Shown one piece after another: positions 1 through 28,529 of a stretch of DNA of 42,729 nucleotides; position 1 is the first letter of the stretch, and every line of letters starts with the position of its first letter. Both the position numbers and the translations under genes were made by a program. The notes beneath the pieces are model-generated. The model worked only from the letters and a program-made list of their open reading frames with translations, was not told the origin of the DNA and ran no database searches. Location: the IMG/VR virus record IMGVR_UViG_2541047951_000003. The stretch is one strand, 5' to 3'. Source of the DNA: a virus. Its lineage: Duplodnaviria; Heunggongvirae; Uroviricota; Caudoviricetes.

Positions 1-1143
1 CTATGCTGTTTTGATATCTACGATAATCCAGTCTTTACCACGATCATCATTGTATCGGTCGGTCATTTTTCTGGATTTATGGCCTAACAACTTTTGCGTA
101 TCCAGACCCTGTTCCCGATATAACCGTTCTGACAGAGATCGCTGCTCATGAAATGTGGGCGCAGTTCCTTGCTCCCATTTTATGCCACATTTTTCCCGGG
201 CCTTTTTAAAAGCCGTTGTCAGAGTATTCGCAGAAACCTGGTCTCCTCTGTTTGCTTGAGAGGTAGTGTGACGGTAATGGACCAGATATTTACTAACAAC
301 AGCATCCCTGCACTGAGATATAACTTCACGAAGGGTAATATTCAGAGCATCGCATTTCAGGTTAAGCGGAATAGCAAGTTTTGAACCGGTTTTTTCCTGA
401 GTAATGTGCAACATGTCGTCCCATATATCAGAGAATTTCAAATTGCAGATATCGCCTAAACGTTGTCCAGTAACAAGAGCAAGTAGCATGCCGCATTTTA
501 AATAGGGCTGCCGTCTGCTTACGCTGTCAAATATTGCCTGCCATTCGGGCAGTGACAATCTTTGGCGGTTTACTCGATTTCGTGGTTGTTTTGTTGCCTG
601 CGCTGGGTTAAATCCTGGCGGAACATGTCCTGCGTGTTGTGCTTCTTTGAAGACGTCGATCAACACCATTCTCACGACTTGCGCCATCCTGTTATGACCT
701 TCAGCCTTTACAGCATCAATTATTTCGGCAATATCAAGTGCGGTAATATCCTTGAGGTGTTGCATTCCACAATGCTCACGGAAAAGACGAATGGGTTTGC
801 CTTTTTGCCGATAGGAGTTGGGTCTTAGTTCATTATGTTGCAGCCTGTCCTCTTGGATAGAAATATATTTATCAAGCCATTCTGTCACCGTAATGTCTGA
901 GCGCCTGCCTTTCATTCTTTCCAGACGCTCATTGACGCTTAATATTTGTCTGGTACGTTGTTCAGCAATAATGGTATTTGCTTCAGTAGCAACTTGTTTT
1001 GCTTCATTCTCATCAGTTCCTAAGCTATGAAAACGACCGGATAGTGGATGTTTGTATTGCCAATATACCTTTCCGGTTCGCTTATCTAATTTGCAATATA
1101 AATTGGGTATAGAGATTTTGTGAGATCGGGGTCTAGCAGCCAT
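1..1143 (-). CDS. int: Tyrosine site-specific integrase (lambda Int family); stop codon at window positions 1-3
   Basis: 380-aa ORF with C-terminal catalytic-domain signature (HxLRH-like 'TFHEQRSLSERLY', 'LLGHKS...RY'); first gene after xis as in lambda; 11-nt overlap with xis. Confidence 0.9.
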   Translation of the reverse strand: MAARPRSHKISIPNLYCKLDKRTGKVYWQYKHPLSGRFHSLGTDENEAKQVATEANTIIAEQRTRQILSVNERLERMKGRRSDITVTEWLDKYISIQEDRLQHNELRPNSYRQKGKPIRLFREHCGMQHLKDITALDIAEIIDAVKAEGHNRMAQVVRMVLIDVFKEAQHAGHVPPGFNPAQATKQPRNRVNRQRLSLPEWQAIFDSVSRRQPYLKCGMLLALVTGQRLGDICNLKFSDIWDDMLHITQEKTGSKLAIPLNLKCDALNITLREVISQCRDAVVSKYLVHYRHTTSQANRGDQVSANTLTTAFKKAREKCGIKWEQGTAPTFHEQRSLSERLYREQGLDTQKLLGHKSRKMTDRYNDDRGKDWIIVDIKTA

Positions 1144-5125: not shown

Positions 5126-5197
5126 GGTGTGCTCCTTATTTATACATAACGAAAAACGCCTCGAGTGAAGCGTAATTGGTATGCGGTAACGCCGCGC

Positions 5198-5566
5198 TCA
5201 GGCGGCCTTGATAGTCATATCATCTGAATCAAATATTCCTGATGTATCGATATCGGTAATTCTTATTCCTTCACTACCATCCATTGGAGGCCATCCTTCC
5301 TGACCATTTCCATCATTCCAGTCGAACTCACACACAACACCATATGCATTTAAGTCGCTTGAAATTGCTATAAGCAGAGCATGTTGCGCCAGCATGATTA
5401 ATACAGCATTTAATACAGAGCCGTGTTTATTGAGTCGGTATTCAGAGTCTGACCAGAAATTATTAATCTGGTGAAGTTTTTCCTCTGTCATTACGTCATG
5501 GTCAATTTCAATTTCTATTGATGCTTTCCAGTCGTAATCAATGATGTATTTTTTGATGTTTGACAT
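5198..5566 (-). CDS. ea10: Ea10-like early protein, 122 aa
   Basis: Position between cIII and ral, length 122 aa, sequence consistent with lambda Ea10. Confidence 0.7.
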   Translation of the reverse strand: MSNIKKYIIDYDWKASIEIEIDHDVMTEEKLHQINNFWSDSEYRLNKHGSVLNAVLIMLAQHALLIAISSDLNAYGVVCEFDWNDGNGQEGWPPMDGSEGIRITDIDTSGIFDSDDMTIKAA

Positions 5567-5583
5567 CTATTCATATCCTCATA

Positions 5584-5612
5584 GATAAAAAATCGCCCTC
5601 ACACTGGAGGGC
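5584..5612 (-). terminator. Candidate rho-independent terminator (minus strand) between ral and ea10
   Basis: GCCCTC-loop-GAGGGC stem at 5595-5612 followed on the minus strand by a T-run. Confidence 0.4.
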
Positions 5613-5748
5613 AAAGAAGATTTCCAATAATCAGAACAAGTCGGCTCCTGTTTAGTTACGAGCGACATTGCTCCGTGTATTCACTCGTTGGAATGAATAC
5701 ACAGTGCAGTGTTTATTCTGTTATTTATGCCAAAAATAAAGGCCACTA

Positions 5749-15075: not shown

Positions 15076-16158
15076 TTAGAACTGATAAACCAGACCTACA
15101 GCGACGATGTCGTCGGTATCAATACCAGCTGTTTTGGTAAACTTACTATCGTCAATTAAGTTGATTTTGTAATCAACAAAAGTGGACATGTTTTTATTAA
15201 AGTAGTAAGTAGCACCGACATCGACATACTTGACTAAGTCTCGGTCACCATGAACACCAAGGTCTTTACCTTTTGACTGAAGGTAAGCAACAGATGGACG
15301 CAGACCGAAGTCAAACTGATATTGTGCTACTGCTTCAAAGTTTTGTGCTTTGTTTGCAATATGGTTATTACCAAAAACGGTCATATTCTGAGTTTCAGAA
15401 TATGTGGTAGCCAGATAGATATTGTTCGCATCATATTTCAGGCCTGCAGCCCATACTTCCGCATTTTTGCCGGAGGCATTGAATTTGCTCTTACCATAGG
15501 CGACCTGACCGTCAGTGCGATCTGATTTAGCATAGGTTGCACCCACGCCGAATCCTTCATACTCATAAGTAGTGGAGAAACCGAAACCATCACCATTGGC
15601 TTCAGTTACGTCAGTGCGGTCATTTTTACCCTGATACTGAGCAGCAAAGTTCAGGCCATCGACCAGACCAAAGAAGTCGTTGTTACGATAAGTTGCAACA
15701 CCAGTAGTGCGACCAGTCATGAACACATCTGTTTGGGTCCAGGTATCACCACCGAATTCTGGCAGAACGTCAGTCCACGCACCGATGTCGTATGCTACAC
15801 CGTAGTTACGGCCGTAATCGATTGAGCCGTAATCACCAAATTTCAGGCCTGCAAATGCAAGACGGGTTTTGTCTTTGGAAGAACCTTGAGATTCAGCACG
15901 GTTGCCTTTGAATTCATATTCCCACTGACCGAAACCAGTCAGTTGATCGTTGATTTGGGTTTCACCTTTGAAGCCAAGACGGGCATAAGTAGTATCACCA
16001 TCATCTGCATCATTAGAGGAGAAGTAGTGCTTGGCATTAACTTTCCCGTATAGATCCAGCTTGTTACTGTCTTTATTATAAATTTCAGCTGCCTGAGCAG
16101 ACATCGCCATCAGTACTGATGCAGCTACAGCAGAAATTGCCACTGTTAATTTTTTCAT
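15076..16158 (-). CDS. nmpC: Outer-membrane general porin (NmpC/OmpD/OmpC family), intact
   Basis: Signal peptide [23 protein letters not shown]; porin hallmarks incl. C-terminal ...VAVGLVYQF; located between Q and the lysis genes on the opposite strand, as nmpC is in DLP12. Confidence 0.9.
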
Positions 16159-16584
16159 TGTACGCCCTTTTTTTGAACTATTATTAAAAAATGATGTCAC
16201 TGCGCGATAAATATTCATCTAATCAATGTGATTATTTCAAGATGTAAGTTTTAGTTTCTCATTTAATTTGTGAAGTAGATCTCTATTTTTATCTGAACCT
16301 TTTCTATCTAATCCTATTCATGGCTCTTGTCTGAACAAAAATAAATCTATTAGCTAATTTATATTAATGGCACTTATTTATAAGTGCTCTATAATTCTTT
16401 AGCTTAATTTAAACAAACTAAAAATAACATTGGAAATTATTAACTGGTTATTTGTTGAAGTTTTCTTATGCATTTGTGGTGGTGTTTTGAACACTCGGTG
16501 GCATTCTCACAAATATCATTTAGTAGTTTACGTACGTAAAAAATTGGTTATGCTGTTAAGAGTGGTTACTTCGTCACACAGCTT

Positions 16585-23785: not shown

Positions 23786-23975
23786 ACTGCAGGCGCTGCG
23801 TCAGGCGCGCCTTGATTTATTAACCGGTAAACGGGTGGTGTCTGTCCAGAAAGATGGTCGCAGAATTGAATATACGGCGGCTTCTCTGGATGAGCTTAAC
23901 CGGGCGATCAATGATGCGGAGTCGGTACTGGGGACAACCCGGTGTCGCCGTCGTCCGCTGGGAGTGAGGTTATGA
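23769..23975 (+). CDS. W: Head-tail joining protein W
   Basis: 68 aa; LTGKRVVSVQKDGRRIEYTAAS parallels lambda gpW. Confidence 0.85.
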   Translation: MVTVAELQALRQARLDLLTGKRVVSVQKDGRRIEYTAASLDELNRAINDAESVLGTTRCRRRPLGVRL

Positions 23976-25564
23976 AACGAACGCCTGTCCTGATTGATGT
24001 GAACGGCGTTCCGCTTCGTGAGAGTCTCAGCTACAACGGGGGCGGTGCAGGATTTGGCGGGCAAATGGCTGAGTGGTTGCCACCGGCGCAGAGTGCCGAT
24101 GCGGCCCTGCTGCCCGCGTTGCGTCTGGGGAATGCCCGGGCAGATGATCTGGTGCGCAATAACGGAATAGCGGCTAATGCGGTGGCTCTGCATAAGGATC
24201 ACATTGTCGGGCATATGTTTCTGATCAGCTACCGTCCGAACTGGCGCTGGCTGGGGATGCGGGAGACCGCAGCAAAAAGCTTTGTCGATGAGGTGGAGGC
24301 GGCCTGGTCGGAATACGCCGAAGGGATGTTTGGCGAGATCGACGTGGAAGGAAAACGCACGTTCACGGAATTTATCCGTGAAGGTGTGGGCGTTCATGCG
24401 TTTAACGGCGAAATCTTTGTGCAGCCGGTCTGGGATACGGAAACCACGCAGTTATTCCGTACGCGTTTTAAAGCCGTGAGTCCGAAACGGGTGGACACGC
24501 CTGGACACGGTATGGGGAACCGTTTTCTGCGGGCCGGTGTGGAGGTCGATCGATATGGCCGTGCCGTCGCGTACCATATCTGTGAGGATGATTTTCCGTT
24601 CTCTGGTAGTGGACGATGGGAACGGATCCCGCGTGAACTTCCCACCGGGCGTCCGGCCATGCTGCATATTTTCGAGCCGGTGGAGGACGGGCAGACCCGT
24701 GGGGCTAATCAGTTTTACAGCGTCATGGAACGGCTGAAGATGCTCGATTCCCTGCAGGCAACACAGCTTCAGTCGGCCATAGTGAAGGCGATGTATGCAG
24801 CGACGATTGAAAGTGAACTTGATACCGAAAAGGCCTTTGAATATATCGCCGGCGCGCCACAGGAGCAGAAGGATAATCCGCTTATTAATATTCTGGAGAA
24901 GTTTTCCAGCTGGTATGACACGAATAACGTGACACTGGGCGGTGTCAAAATTCCGCACCTTTTCCCTGGTGATGATCTGAAACTACAGACTGCGCAGGAT
25001 TCAGACAATGGATTTTCTGCGCTTGAACAGGCGCTGCTGCGGTATATCGCCGCCGGTCTTGGCGTTTCCTACGAACAGTTGTCCCGTGATTACTCGAAGG
25101 TCAGTTACTCAAGTGCCCGCGCCTCCGCCAATGAGTCGTGGCGCTATTTTATGGGGTGGCGAAAATTTATTGCGGCCCGGCTGGCCACGCAGATGTTTTC
25201 CTGCTGGCTGGAAGAGGCACTTCTTCGGGGGATTATTCGTCCGCCACGGGCACGTTTTGATTTTTATCAGGCGCGATCAGCCTGGTCACGGGCAGAGTGG
25301 ATTGGTGCCGGAAGAATGGCCATTGACGGGCTCAAGGAAGTCCAGGAATCAGTGATGCGCATTGAGGCCGGACTGAGCACGTATGAGAAAGAGCTGGCGC
25401 TGATGGGCGAGGATTATCAGGACATTTTCCGCCAGCAGGTCAGGGAATCTGCTGAGCGGCAAAAAGCCGGACTCTCACGTCCGGTGTGGATAGAGCAGGC
25501 GTATCAGCAGCAGATAGCGGAGAGTCGCAGGCCGGAAGAGGAGACAACACCACGTGAGACGTAA
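23972..25564 (+). CDS. B: Portal protein (gpB)
   Basis: About 530 aa with lambda gpB-like sequence; ATGA overlap with W. Confidence 0.9.
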   Translation: MKRTPVLIDVNGVPLRESLSYNGGGAGFGGQMAEWLPPAQSADAALLPALRLGNARADDLVRNNGIAANAVALHKDHIVGHMFLISYRPNWRWLGMRETAAKSFVDEVEAAWSEYAEGMFGEIDVEGKRTFTEFIREGVGVHAFNGEIFVQPVWDTETTQLFRTRFKAVSPKRVDTPGHGMGNRFLRAGVEVDRYGRAVAYHICEDDFPFSGSGRWERIPRELPTGRPAMLHIFEPVEDGQTRGANQFYSVMERLKMLDSLQATQLQSAIVKAMYAATIESELDTEKAFEYIAGAPQEQKDNPLINILEKFSSWYDTNNVTLGGVKIPHLFPGDDLKLQTAQDSDNGFSALEQALLRYIAAGLGVSYEQLSRDYSKVSYSSARASANESWRYFMGWRKFIAARLATQMFSCWLEEALLRGIIRPPRARFDFYQARSAWSRAEWIGAGRMAIDGLKEVQESVMRIEAGLSTYEKELALMGEDYQDIFRQQVRESAERQKAGLSRPVWIEQAYQQQIAESRRPEEETTPRET

Positions 25565-27059
25565 TCTTTCACACATTATTGCCGCAGCATTCAATGAACC
25601 GCTGCTTCTGGAGCCCGCCTATGCGCGGGTTTTCTTTTGCGCGCTCGGGCGCGAGATGGGGGCAGCAAGTCTTTCGGTACCACAACAGCAGGTACAGTTT
25701 GATGCTCCCGGAATGCTGGCTGAAACGGACGAGTACATGGCCGGAGGTAAACGACCGGCCCGTGTTTACCGGGTGGTGAACGGTATTGCTGTACTGCCGG
25801 TGACCGGCACGCTGGTGCACCGGCTGGGTGGTATGCGGCCATTTTCCGGAATGACAGGCTATGACGGCATTGTCGCCTGTCTTCAGCAGGCAATGGCGGA
25901 TAGCCAGGTGCGGGGCGTACTGCTGGACATTGACAGTCCGGGCGGGCAGGCCGCCGGCGCGTTTGACTGCGCTGACATGATTTACCGCCTCCGTCAGCAG
26001 AAGCCGGTCTGGGCACTGTGCAATGACACGGCCTGTTCTGCAGCCATGCTGCTGGCGTCGGCCTGCTCCCGACGGCTGGTTACCCAGACATCCCGTATCG
26101 GCTCCATTGGCGTGATGATGAGCCATGTCAGCTATGCCGGTCATCTGGCGCAGGCCGGTGTGGATATCACGCTGATTTACTCAGGGGCGCACAAGGTGGA
26201 TGGCAATCAGTTTGAAGCGTTGCCGGCAGAGGTTCGCCAGGACATGCAGCAGCGGATTGATGCGGCGCGCCGGATGTTTGCCGAAAAAGTGGCGATGTAT
26301 ACCGGTCTGTCTGTTGATGCCGTCACGGGAACAGAGGCTGCCGTTTTTGAAGGTCAGTCCGGCATTGAGGCCGGGCTGGCGGATGAATTAATCAATGCGT
26401 CGGATGCCATCAGTGTGATGGCCACGGCGCTGAACAGTAATGTCAGAGGAGGCACTATGCCGCAATTAACTGCAACGGAAGCCGCCGCGCAGGAGAACCA
26501 GCGAGTGATGGGGATCCTGACATGCCAGGAAGCGAAAGGACGTGAACAGCTTGCCACGATGCTGGCAGGACAACAGGGCATGAGCGTTGAACAGGCCCGG
26601 GCGATTCTGGCCGCGGCGGCACCGCAGCAGCCGGTGGCATCCACGCAGAGTGAAGCCGATCGCATTATGGTGTGTGAAGAAGCGAACGGTCGTGAACAAC
26701 TGGCGGCAACGCTGGCGGCGATGCCGGAGATGACGGTGGAAAAAGCCCGCCCGATCCTGGCTGCTTCACCGCAGGCGGATGCCGGACCATCACTCCGTGA
26801 TCAGATCATGGCACTGGATGAGGCAAAAGGGGCTGAGGCGCAGGCTGAACAGCTGGCTGCCTGCCCGGGAATGACAGTGGAGAGCGCCCGGGCTGTGCTG
26901 GCTGCGGGATCAGGTAAGGCAGAACCGGTCTCTGCATCCACAACCGCCATGTTTGAACATTTCATGGCGAACCATTCACCGGCAGCGGTACAGGGTGGCG
27001 TGGCACAGACGTCAGCAGACGGTGATGCGGACGTGAAAATGCTCATGGCCATGCCATGA
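25554..27059 (+). CDS. C: Head maturation protease/scaffold gpC (ClpP/S49-like) with C-terminal Nu3-type scaffold repeats; GTG start
   Basis: FNEPLLLEPAYARVFFCAL..., S49 peptidase-like core matches lambda gpC; C-terminal region has three tandem Nu3-like motifs. Confidence 0.9.
   Translation: MRRNLSHIIAAAFNEPLLLEPAYARVFFCALGREMGAASLSVPQQQVQFDAPGMLAETDEYMAGGKRPARVYRVVNGIAVLPVTGTLVHRLGGMRPFSGMTGYDGIVACLQQAMADSQVRGVLLDIDSPGGQAAGAFDCADMIYRLRQQKPVWALCNDTACSAAMLLASACSRRLVTQTSRIGSIGVMMSHVSYAGHLAQAGVDITLIYSGAHKVDGNQFEALPAEVRQDMQQRIDAARRMFAEKVAMYTGLSVDAVTGTEAAVFEGQSGIEAGLADELINASDAISVMATALNSNVRGGTMPQLTATEAAAQENQRVMGILTCQEAKGREQLATMLAGQQGMSVEQARAILAAAAPQQPVASTQSEADRIMVCEEANGREQLAATLAAMPEMTVEKARPILAASPQADAGPSLRDQIMALDEAKGAEAQAEQLAACPGMTVESARAVLAAGSGKAEPVSASTTAMFEHFMANHSPAAVQGGVAQTSADGDADVKMLMAMP
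26457..27059 (+). CDS. nu3: Candidate Nu3-like scaffolding protein from in-frame internal start within C
   Basis: ATG at 26457 preceded by AGGAGG at optimal spacing; in frame with C; analogous to lambda nu3 nested in C. Confidence 0.5.
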   Translation: MPQLTATEAAAQENQRVMGILTCQEAKGREQLATMLAGQQGMSVEQARAILAAAAPQQPVASTQSEADRIMVCEEANGREQLAATLAAMPEMTVEKARPILAASPQADAGPSLRDQIMALDEAKGAEAQAEQLAACPGMTVESARAVLAAGSGKAEPVSASTTAMFEHFMANHSPAAVQGGVAQTSADGDADVKMLMAMP

Positions 27060-27095: not shown

Positions 27096-27443
27096 ATGGT
27101 GACGAAAACCATCACTGAACAGCGTGCGGAAGTACGTATTTTTGCCGGTAATGATCCGGCTCATACCGCCACAGGCAGCAGCGGGATTTCCTCGCCAACA
27201 CCGGCACTGACGCCCCTGATGCTGGATGAAGCCACCGGGAAACTGGTGGTCTGGGACGGACAGAAAGCCGGTAGTGCGGTTGGCATACTGGTACTGCCGC
27301 TTGAAGGCACAGAGACGGCGCTGACGTATTACAAGTCGGGAACCTTTGCGACGGAGGCAATCCACTGGCCTGAAAGTGTGGATGAACACAAAAAGGCCAA
27401 CGCCTTTGCTGGCAGTGCCCTGAGTCACGCGGCGCTGCCGTAA
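27096..27443 (+). CDS. D: Head decoration protein D
   Basis: 115 aa; 'DPAHTAT', 'TPLMLD', 'YKSGTF' parallel lambda gpD; AGGAGG RBS. Confidence 0.9.
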   Translation: MVTKTITEQRAEVRIFAGNDPAHTATGSSGISSPTPALTPLMLDEATGKLVVWDGQKAGSAVGILVLPLEGTETALTYYKSGTFATEAIHWPESVDEHKKANAFAGSALSHAALP

Positions 27444-27500
27444 CACGTTATCAGGCCACCGCGGTGGCCTGACTGATTTCTGAATGAAAGGAACTGATTT

Positions 27501-28529
27501 ATGGGATTGTTTACGACCCGCCAGTTACTCGGTTATACCGAACAAAAAGTTAAATTTCGTGCGCTGTTTCTGGAGCTGTTTTTCCGCCGTACGGTGAATT
27601 TCCATACCGAAGAGGTGATGCTGGACAAAATTACCGGAAAAACGCCGGTGGCGGCCTATGTCTCCCCGGTTGTTGAAGGAAAAGTGCTGCGTCATCGTGG
27701 TGGTGAAACCCGCGTGTTGCGTCCGGGCTACGTCAAGCCGAAACACGAATTTAATTACCAGCAGGCGGTTGAGCGCCTTCCTGGTGAAGATCCATCTCAA
27801 CTGAATGATCCGGCTTACCGCCGTCTGCGTATCATTACCGATAACCTCAAACAGGAAGAGCACGCGATTGTCCAGGTGGAAGAAATGCAGGCGGTAAATG
27901 CTGTGTTGTATGGCAAATACACCATGGAAGGAGACCAGTTCGAGAAAATTGAGGTCGATTTTGGCAGGTCGACGAAGAATAACATCACTCAGGGTAGTGG
28001 TAAGGAGTGGTCAAAACAGGATCGTGACACGTTCGATCCTACACATGATATTGACCTCTACTGCGACCTGGCCAGCGGTCTTGTGAATATTGCCATTATG
28101 GACGGTACCGTCTGGCGTCTTCTGAATGGTTTTAAGCTGTTCCGCGAAAAACTGGATACCCGTCGCGGCTCAAATTCACAACTCGAAACGGCAGTGAAAG
28201 ATCTGGGCGCAGTGGTGTCCTTCAAGGGGTATTACGGCGATCTGGCCATTGTGGTGGCGAAAACGTCTTATGTGGCAGAGGACGGTACCGAAAAACGTTA
28301 TCTGCCGGAGGGCATGCTGGTGTTGGGGAATACGGCGGCAGAGGGGATTCGTTGCTATGGTGCCATTAAGGATGCACAGGCGTTGTCTGAAGGAGTGGTG
28401 GCTTCTTCCCGTTACCCGAAACACTGGCTGACCGTGGGCGATCCGTCCTGTGAATTCACCATGACGCAGTCCGCTCCGCTGATGGTGCTGCCGGATCCGG
28501 ATGAGTTTGTGGTGGTACAGGTGAAATAA
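27501..28529 (+). CDS. E: Major capsid protein E
   Basis: 342 aa; strong similarity to lambda gpE (e.g. DTRRGSNS.LETAVKDLG.AVS.KG.YGD.AIVV, TMTQSAPLM). Confidence 0.95.
   Translation: MGLFTTRQLLGYTEQKVKFRALFLELFFRRTVNFHTEEVMLDKITGKTPVAAYVSPVVEGKVLRHRGGETRVLRPGYVKPKHEFNYQQAVERLPGEDPSQLNDPAYRRLRIITDNLKQEEHAIVQVEEMQAVNAVLYGKYTMEGDQFEKIEVDFGRSTKNNITQGSGKEWSKQDRDTFDPTHDIDLYCDLASGLVNIAIMDGTVWRLLNGFKLFREKLDTRRGSNSQLETAVKDLGAVVSFKGYYGDLAIVVAKTSYVAEDGTEKRYLPEGMLVLGNTAAEGIRCYGAIKDAQALSEGVVASSRYPKHWLTVGDPSCEFTMTQSAPLMVLPDPDEFVVVQVK

Follow-up and report, generated by a model that had tools for sequence, protein, structure and literature searches.

A phage 21-type protease/scaffold gene pair with a nested start and three scaffold repeat units

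Genes 5 and 6 and their repeat units

Here we describe the head-gene region of IMG/VR virus record IMGVR_UViG_2541047951_000003, a 42,729-nt Caudoviricetes sequence (hereafter the window, meaning the whole stretch analysed), in which a protease/scaffold fusion gene holds a second, in-frame scaffold gene within its 3' part. Gene 5 (25554-27059, plus strand; an open reading frame (ORF) with a GTG start, an annotated coding sequence (CDS) and a Pfam match) encodes a 501-aa prohead protease/scaffold fusion homologous to lambda gpC. Nested gene 6 (26457-27059, plus strand; a CDS in both GenBank M81255.1 and OL657228.1) encodes a 200-aa scaffold protein, a homologue of lambda Nu3, which corresponds to the C-terminal 200 residues of gp5 and contains three tandem repeat units. 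All 1506 nt of gene 5 are 100% identical to Escherichia phage 21, both in M81255.1, a 1993 head-operon record entitled "Bacteriophage 21 head gene operon", and in the complete genome OL657228.1; sequence, nested gene 6 start, ribosome-binding site (RBS) and three repeat regions are the same, with no difference anywhere within 25554-27059. The segment is very common in E. coli: an 801-nt query across it found matches in 1869 of the 5426 complete genomes compared, at up to five places per genome.

The arrangement has a long annotation history. M81255.1 annotates gene 5, a putative RBS and the nested gene 6 CDS ("gp6") from window position 26457, along with three repeat regions, the "Tri1 box", the "Tri box" and the "Tri3 box", that correspond to 26524-26627, 26664-26774 and 26805-26918 and coincide with the three tandem units described here; in OL657228.1 the nested CDS appears as "scaffolding protein", with a reference to lambda Nu3. 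Since gene 6, its RBS and the Tri boxes are all present in M81255.1, we count the feature as known: every element of the repeats and the internal start has been in the public record since 1993, and finding them again is a rediscovery, correct and not new. The paper behind M81255.1 is presumably Smith & Feiss 1993 (Gene 126:1-7), and a literature search turned up no readable paper on phage 21 head genes or Tri boxes.

The internal start is well formed. A Shine-Dalgarno (SD) sequence, AGGAGG (26447-26452, plus strand), is separated by 4 nt from the ATG, falls inside three codons of gene 5 (Arg-Gly-Gly) and is marked as the RBS in the two phage 21 records; the ATG at 26457 keeps the frame of the 501-aa ORF, so that AGGAGG-N4-ATG spans 26447-26459 as a C/Nu3-type internal start. 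Its predicted pairing to the 16S 3' end (-12.0 kcal/mol) surpasses that of any other start in this stretch of the ORF. The original prediction, made from the sequence alone, had named exactly this codon and SD sequence and had proposed that they would yield a Nu3-like scaffold carrying all three repeats; the first point is confirmed by the sequence and by two phage 21 records, and the second agrees with the annotated gene 6 start and with the conservation of that start across the family.

Within gp6, repeat unit 1 (NQRVMGILTCQEAKGREQLATMLAGQQGMSVEQARAILAAAAPQ; 26496-26627, plus strand) carries an N-terminal extension also present in the single copy of lambda, and is followed by unit 2 (ADRIMVCEEANGREQLAATLAAMPEMTVEKARPILAASPQ; 26655-26774, plus strand) and unit 3 (RDQIMALDEAKGAEAQAEQLAACPGMTVESARAVLAAGSG; 26796-26915, plus strand), which correspond to the Tri box and Tri3 box, respectively. 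A C-terminal tail common to gp5 and gp6 (gp6 residues 160-200; 26934-27056, plus strand), recognised from alignment with lambda and from the AlphaFold2 model described below, closes both proteins. The original prediction of three tandem, diverged copies of about 38-45 residues at the C-terminus of a gpC homologue holds: its three quoted peptides occur exactly, at gp6 residues 16-54, 69-104 and 116-151 (26502-26618, 26661-26768 and 26802-26909), in units of about 40 residues whose starts are spaced 53 and 47 residues apart. Pairwise local BLOSUM62 scores of the three segments are 101, 86 and 93, against a mean of about 25 (standard deviation about 5, maximum 52) for composition-preserving shuffles; none of the 2000 shuffles reached the observed scores, which stand at z = 11-16.

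Sixteen columns are invariant among the three units, and conservation of these columns extends to a set of 28 units drawn from many proteins. The resulting Nu3-type motif reads I-[ML]-x-x-x-E-A-x-G-R-E-x-x-A-x-x-L-A-x-x-P-G-M-T-V-x-x-A-x-x-I-L-A-A, and a hidden Markov model (HMM) built from seven units of phage 21, Gifsy-1 and lambda returns three matches of 66-79 bits each in 21-type proteins; likewise, PHROG 8399, "head scaffolding protein", matches in three stretches (E=1.6e-34). At the DNA level the units are only 55-63% identical to one another, and Tandem Repeats Finder reported no tandem repeat in the DNA while a general repeat search gave short weak matches only, from which we read an old duplication that is visible in protein only.

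The remainder of gp5 identifies the fusion partner. An S49 (SppA-like) serine peptidase domain occupies gp5 residues 146-293 (25989-26432, plus strand; Pfam PF01343, E=3.7e-35), within the N-terminal two-thirds of the protein given over to the peptidase, and gp5 also matches the SppA crystal structures 3rst and 4kwb in a PDB sequence search (E ~4e-16) and the head maturation protease family phrog_53 (E=1.7e-228). S162, the counterpart of lambda S166, and K214 are invariant across nine homologues, pointing to an S49 domain with the Ser/Lys dyad of a C/Nu3-type protease. Identity of gp5 is 55% to lambda gpC and 66% to Gifsy-1 gpC, and the identification of the ORF as a gpC homologue, also part of the original prediction, is thus borne out by the S49 and phrog_53 matches.

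Gene order agrees with the position of lambda gene C. Upstream lies gene 4, the phage 21 portal gene and lambda B homologue (23942-25564, plus strand; an ORF annotated as portal in OL657228 and M81255), whose 3' end overlaps the GTG start of gene 5. Directly downstream are the head decoration gene shp, the lambda D homologue (27096-27443, plus strand), and gene 7, encoding the major capsid protein and homologous to lambda E (27501-28529, plus strand), both ORFs with phage 21 annotations; the gene 7 product is the presumed assembly partner of the scaffold. The series portal, gene 5, shp, major capsid protein is that of a C/Nu3-type locus.

The internal start and unit number across the family

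The lambda C/Nu3 pair is one of the nearest known systems. Like phage 21, lambda has the order portal, C/Nu3, D, E, an S49 domain (55% overall identity), a homologous internal SD and ATG at M309 (caggagggcgaATG), the unit motif and the same type of C-terminal tail. Lambda differs in having one unit after a low-complexity linker of about 50 aa and a product of 131 aa from M309, whereas phage 21 has three units, a 13-aa leader and a product of 200 aa. Alignment of lambda gpC (439 aa, NC_001416) found one copy of the motif, as the original prediction had stated, and not the three that would have refuted it.

To place the internal start in the wider family, gpC homologues with DNA were collected from species-representative genomes and the in-frame start with the best SD was sought in the ~110 codons before the first motif; loci for this survey and for the unit survey below were retrieved with a 9-sequence gpC alignment. 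In 38 of 41 loci, which span Enterobacteriaceae, Vibrio, Photobacterium, Pseudomonas, Marinobacter and alphaproteobacteria, the best-SD start is an ATG at residue 294-312 with a GGAG-type SD. Furthermore, in a 47-sequence alignment the gene 6 start column (lambda M309) holds Met in 43 sequences, of which 37 also have an SD at least as strong as -5.5 kcal/mol, in hosts ranging from Enterobacteriaceae to Vibrio, Pseudomonas, Marinobacter and Rhodobacteraceae; the linker around the start is otherwise poorly conserved. Since Met and SD are kept while the surrounding linker is not, there is good comparative evidence that the internal start is real and ancient. The lambda nu3 CDS in RefSeq (NC_001416) begins elsewhere, at gpC M239 (record positions 5132-5737, 201 aa), and this column (nt 5132) is Met in only 5 of the 47 sequences, none with an SD. 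The comparison suggests that the conserved version of lambda Nu3 is the 131-aa product from M309, and the RefSeq start of lambda nu3 is likely misplaced.

Some of the fetched loci, from assemblies that bear the names Neobacillus, Chromatium, Kitasatospora, Shewanella, Pseudomonas, a Chromatiales metagenome-assembled genome and Paenibacillus, lie on contigs that are 100% identical to lambda over the fetched region, several of them ~48.4 kb long; these are almost certainly lambda control-DNA contamination of public assemblies.

The Salmonella prophage Gifsy-1 is closer to phage 21 in its scaffold architecture. Its gpC homologue STM2605 also has three units in the same order, each nearest the phage 21 unit in the same position, as well as the same internal start context (gacaggaggcactATG); it differs in sequence (~53% identity over the scaffold part) and in a slightly longer C-terminal tail. 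Among species-representative genomes, three units were seen only in Escherichia, Shigella, Trabulsiella and Providencia, to which Salmonella Gifsy-1 is added; ~36 other species-representative loci have one unit, short S49 homologues (~285 aa) have none, and 105 of 119 representatives of 50%-identity clusters found with gp6 carry one. One copy is the widespread state, and the triplication is an old, clade-specific expansion of the single unit seen in lambda and most relatives. Comparisons among units give a relative date: phage 21 units 1, 2 and 3 have identities of 0.84, 0.72 and 0.60 to the same-position units of other three-unit proteins, against 0.52-0.57 to their neighbours in the same protein; being closest to their same-position counterparts, they arose before the 21, Gifsy, Trabulsiella and Providencia lineages split. 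Unit 1 shares its N-terminal extension (NQRVMGIL) with the single unit of lambda. One E. coli lineage (P0026) has four units, the last three of which are 82-88% identical to each other, pointing to recent amplification.

Unit number also varies among close relatives. E. coli homologues with 82-99% identity fall in length classes that differ only in unit content: a 451-aa allele with a hybrid of units 1 and 2 plus unit 3, and a 452-aa allele with units 1 and 3 (two units each); 472-aa and 482-aa alleles with two units and half of unit 2 (2.5 units); 491-501-aa alleles with three units; and a 551-aa allele with four, including a hybrid of units 3 and 2. The junctions are consistent with unequal recombination or deletion between units. 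Most widely seen is the 482-aa allele, found in 3592 blocks of the assembly collection, and both it and the 551-aa allele lie in intact head modules whose adjoining capsid proteins are 97-98% identical to that of the window; across the 2-, 2.5- and 4-unit alleles as a whole, the neighbouring major capsid proteins are 93.6-98% identical to it. The natural alleles thus give no sign of a coupling between unit number and capsid type.

A few single-cluster oddities were set aside and are not used as evidence. In one 657-aa protein (P0093) a large stretch, from ahead of the gene 6 start to within unit 3, is internally duplicated, and in proteins of 721 aa (P0172) and 577 aa (P0176/P0177) the tail after unit 3 is replaced by tail-fibre-like or Gly/His-rich sequence; these may be real rearrangements or assembly chimeras.

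Other features of the window

Within 25500-27059 we found no internal promoter. The "CII binding sites" (TTGYN6TTGY) annotated in gene 6 in OL657228.1, which correspond to 26462-26475 and 26696-26709 on the minus strand, are read as chance matches and rejected, because the pattern is no commoner in the window than chance would have it (5 occurrences, against 9.5 expected from shuffles). ORFs on the opposite strand across the gene 5 region are annotated in no record and were likewise dismissed, as by-products of GC-rich coding. The interval from shp to the major capsid gene contains a GC-rich hairpin of 9 bp with a T-rich tract behind it (27451-27472, plus strand), an element that looked terminator-like in a simple scan; it may be an attenuator or an mRNA-stability element that sets a D:E-type expression ratio.

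The window runs in prophage order, with an integrase at its left end (1-1143, minus strand). In the region of the early/late junction lies a porin gene (OmpD/NmpC-like, with a signal peptide; 15076-16218, minus strand), likely a lysogenic-conversion moron. For the left 20 kb, the nearest relatives are phage ev017 and the ECOR13 prophage PhiR63_2 (100% identity at 93% coverage), and the phage 21 record does not figure among the top hits; the identity with phage 21 is shown for the head genes only.

A repeatable scaffold module and its possible bearing on head assembly

We modelled gp6 with AlphaFold2, from an alignment of 17 sequences only, and obtained a model of moderate quality (mean predicted local distance difference test score (pLDDT) 68, predicted template modelling score (pTM) 0.27). 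In this model, 10-residue blocks over the units average a pLDDT of ~73-81, with three short helices predicted per unit, while the two inter-unit linkers, which are rich in Pro, Gln and Ser and predicted to be disordered, drop to block averages of ~61-65, residues 58-62 being below 50. Past unit 3, the tail scores ~43-66 and contains predicted helices at 160-173 (MFEHFM...) and 191-196 (VKMLMAMP); it aligns with lambda ...LDRLMQG...NDLLNTPV, and we infer that it may serve as a segment targeting the capsid interior. A PDB sequence search with the scaffold part and with a profile of 28 units found no relative, and a Foldseek search of the gp6 model against the PDB gave nothing with E below 2.6.

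Taken together, the locus very probably corresponds to lambda C/Nu3 and forms the nested protease/scaffold pair 5/6 of a lambdoid prophage of phage 21 type, with a scaffold part of three units. Translation from the GTG at 25554 would give gp5, with the S49 protease domain followed by the scaffold part, and a second initiation at the in-frame SD and ATG at 26457 would give gp6, the 200-aa scaffold identical to the gp5 C-terminus. Entry of the protease into the procapsid with the scaffold is established for lambda C/Nu3. Since gp5 and gp6 end in the same C-terminus, the phage 21 protease would similarly be carried into the procapsid along with the scaffold. Each unit would fold as a small helical module, with disordered linkers between units and the conserved tail after the last. 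Because two-hybrid assays are reported to show self-association of lambda Nu3 and its interaction with C and E (PMC3224144), the unit may be the module through which the scaffold contacts itself, the capsid interior or both, in which case extra units would add length and valency and leave the assembly pathway unchanged.

Related logic is found further afield. P2 gpO, the C-terminal targeting tail of the HK97 protease and the helix-turn-helix coat-binding domain of P22 gp8 represent other scaffold/protease arrangements, and, as with the arrangement proposed for gp5/gp6, a small helical C-terminal element imports the scaffold or protease and is later removed by the protease. Neither PDB sequence search, unit profile nor Foldseek detected any sequence or fold similarity between these proteins and the scaffold part of gp6, and no tandemly repeated unit is known from the P2, HK97 or P22 systems.

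Several explanations compete with parts of this picture. Neither chance nor the low complexity of an Ala/Gln-rich region accounts for the repeats, and this explanation is refuted: the region is indeed Ala-rich and neither DNA-level search found a clear repeat, but shuffles of the same composition never come near the observed scores, and the columns identical in all three units are conserved again across the 28-unit set. It is also highly unlikely that the internal ATG goes unused, with a scaffold fragment arising only by proteolysis of gp5 or with gp5 alone being made. The Gly-Gly encoded by the SD might be kept for protein reasons, and our literature search found no paper on phage 21 gp6 expression; set against this, 37 of 47 homologues keep Met and SD within a poorly conserved linker. 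A separate strong start also suits the need for many more scaffold than protease molecules. Furthermore, lambda C and Nu3 are overlapping genes, according to Shaw & Murialdo (1980) as reported in a paper citing them.

Nor do the searches with the unit readily support a role in nucleic-acid binding. Its latter half (LAxxPGMTVExARxILAA) is similar to the helix-hairpin-helix (HhH) consensus, Pfam HHH matches gp6 with E=0.02, HHH_5 or HHH matches 4 of the 28 single units (best E 0.0016), and HhH domains of NusA and RuvA are among the weak PDB matches, so that the scaffold or protease might be imagined to contact DNA. All of these matches, however, fall below curated thresholds (15.2 bits for Pfam HHH, against a cutoff of 24), the structural and profile matches are weak too (Foldseek E=3.9 for RuvA; PDB profile E ~0.7 for NusA), the conserved EAKGRE loop lies outside the HhH, and scaffolds are removed before DNA enters the capsid. 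With no score above the gathering threshold and no significant fold match, we do not assign the unit to the HhH families (PF00633/PF14520), and an HhH-like nucleic-acid-binding motif seems quite improbable. Somewhat less remote, though still unlikely, is that the expansion from one unit to three changed scaffold:capsid stoichiometry or procapsid geometry, with unit number an adaptive setting matched to the capsid; the original prediction had raised altered stoichiometry as something that repeat expansion could bring about. Positional conservation of the three units extends to divergent members of the 21/Gifsy clade, and every phage isolate of 21 type has all three, which suggests purifying selection on the triplicated state. 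Natural variation in unit number, on the other hand, lends this idea no support, with 2.5-unit (482 aa) and 4-unit (551 aa) alleles in intact modules beside capsids 97-98% identical to that of the window.

More speculatively, the Nu3/Tri unit may be an autonomous helical module of ~40 aa that is gained and lost, probably through unequal recombination, among E. coli prophages of near-identical capsid (1, 2, 2.5, 3 or 4 copies); we hold this as a tentative extension of the nested-pair interpretation. A number of points weigh against the main interpretation set out above, the nested pair with its helical repeat units. The Tri box annotation itself reads "function unknown; putative", the structural model is of only moderate quality, and the literature search found no paper on phage 21 gp6 made from 26457 or on binding by the Tri unit. 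All phage isolates of 21 type in the phage collection keep three units, and several reduced-copy alleles sit in degraded prophages: beside the 452-aa allele (L086, E. coli O157:H7, CP038421.1) only 88 codons of the capsid gene remain, adjoining tail genes, the portal gene was not found upstream of the 451-aa allele (L089/L091), and next to the 472-aa allele (L092/L093) it is split or not called. The existence of these alleles is therefore no proof of function with fewer units, and part of the variation in unit number is prophage decay.

As the feature has been annotated since 1993, it carries little weight as a discovery and stands instead as a neat case of a scaffold gene nested in a protease/scaffold gene. 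The additions made here are modest, comprising the conservation of the internal start, the likely misplaced RefSeq nu3 start, the clade-limited age of the triplication, the copy-number polymorphism and the predicted AlphaFold model of the unit. The internal start ranks among the most conserved features of the family, which argues against the start given for lambda nu3 in RefSeq; if the autonomous-module interpretation is right, the real lambda Nu3 would, as a side point, begin at M309 (131 aa) in place of the 201-aa RefSeq CDS. On that same interpretation, the widespread 482-aa, 2.5-unit allele would belong to working phages, and the range of unit numbers would offer a natural series in which to test the effect of scaffold valency and length on procapsid assembly. 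A repeatable scaffold module with natural variation in copy number gives a simple genetic handle on scaffold valency.

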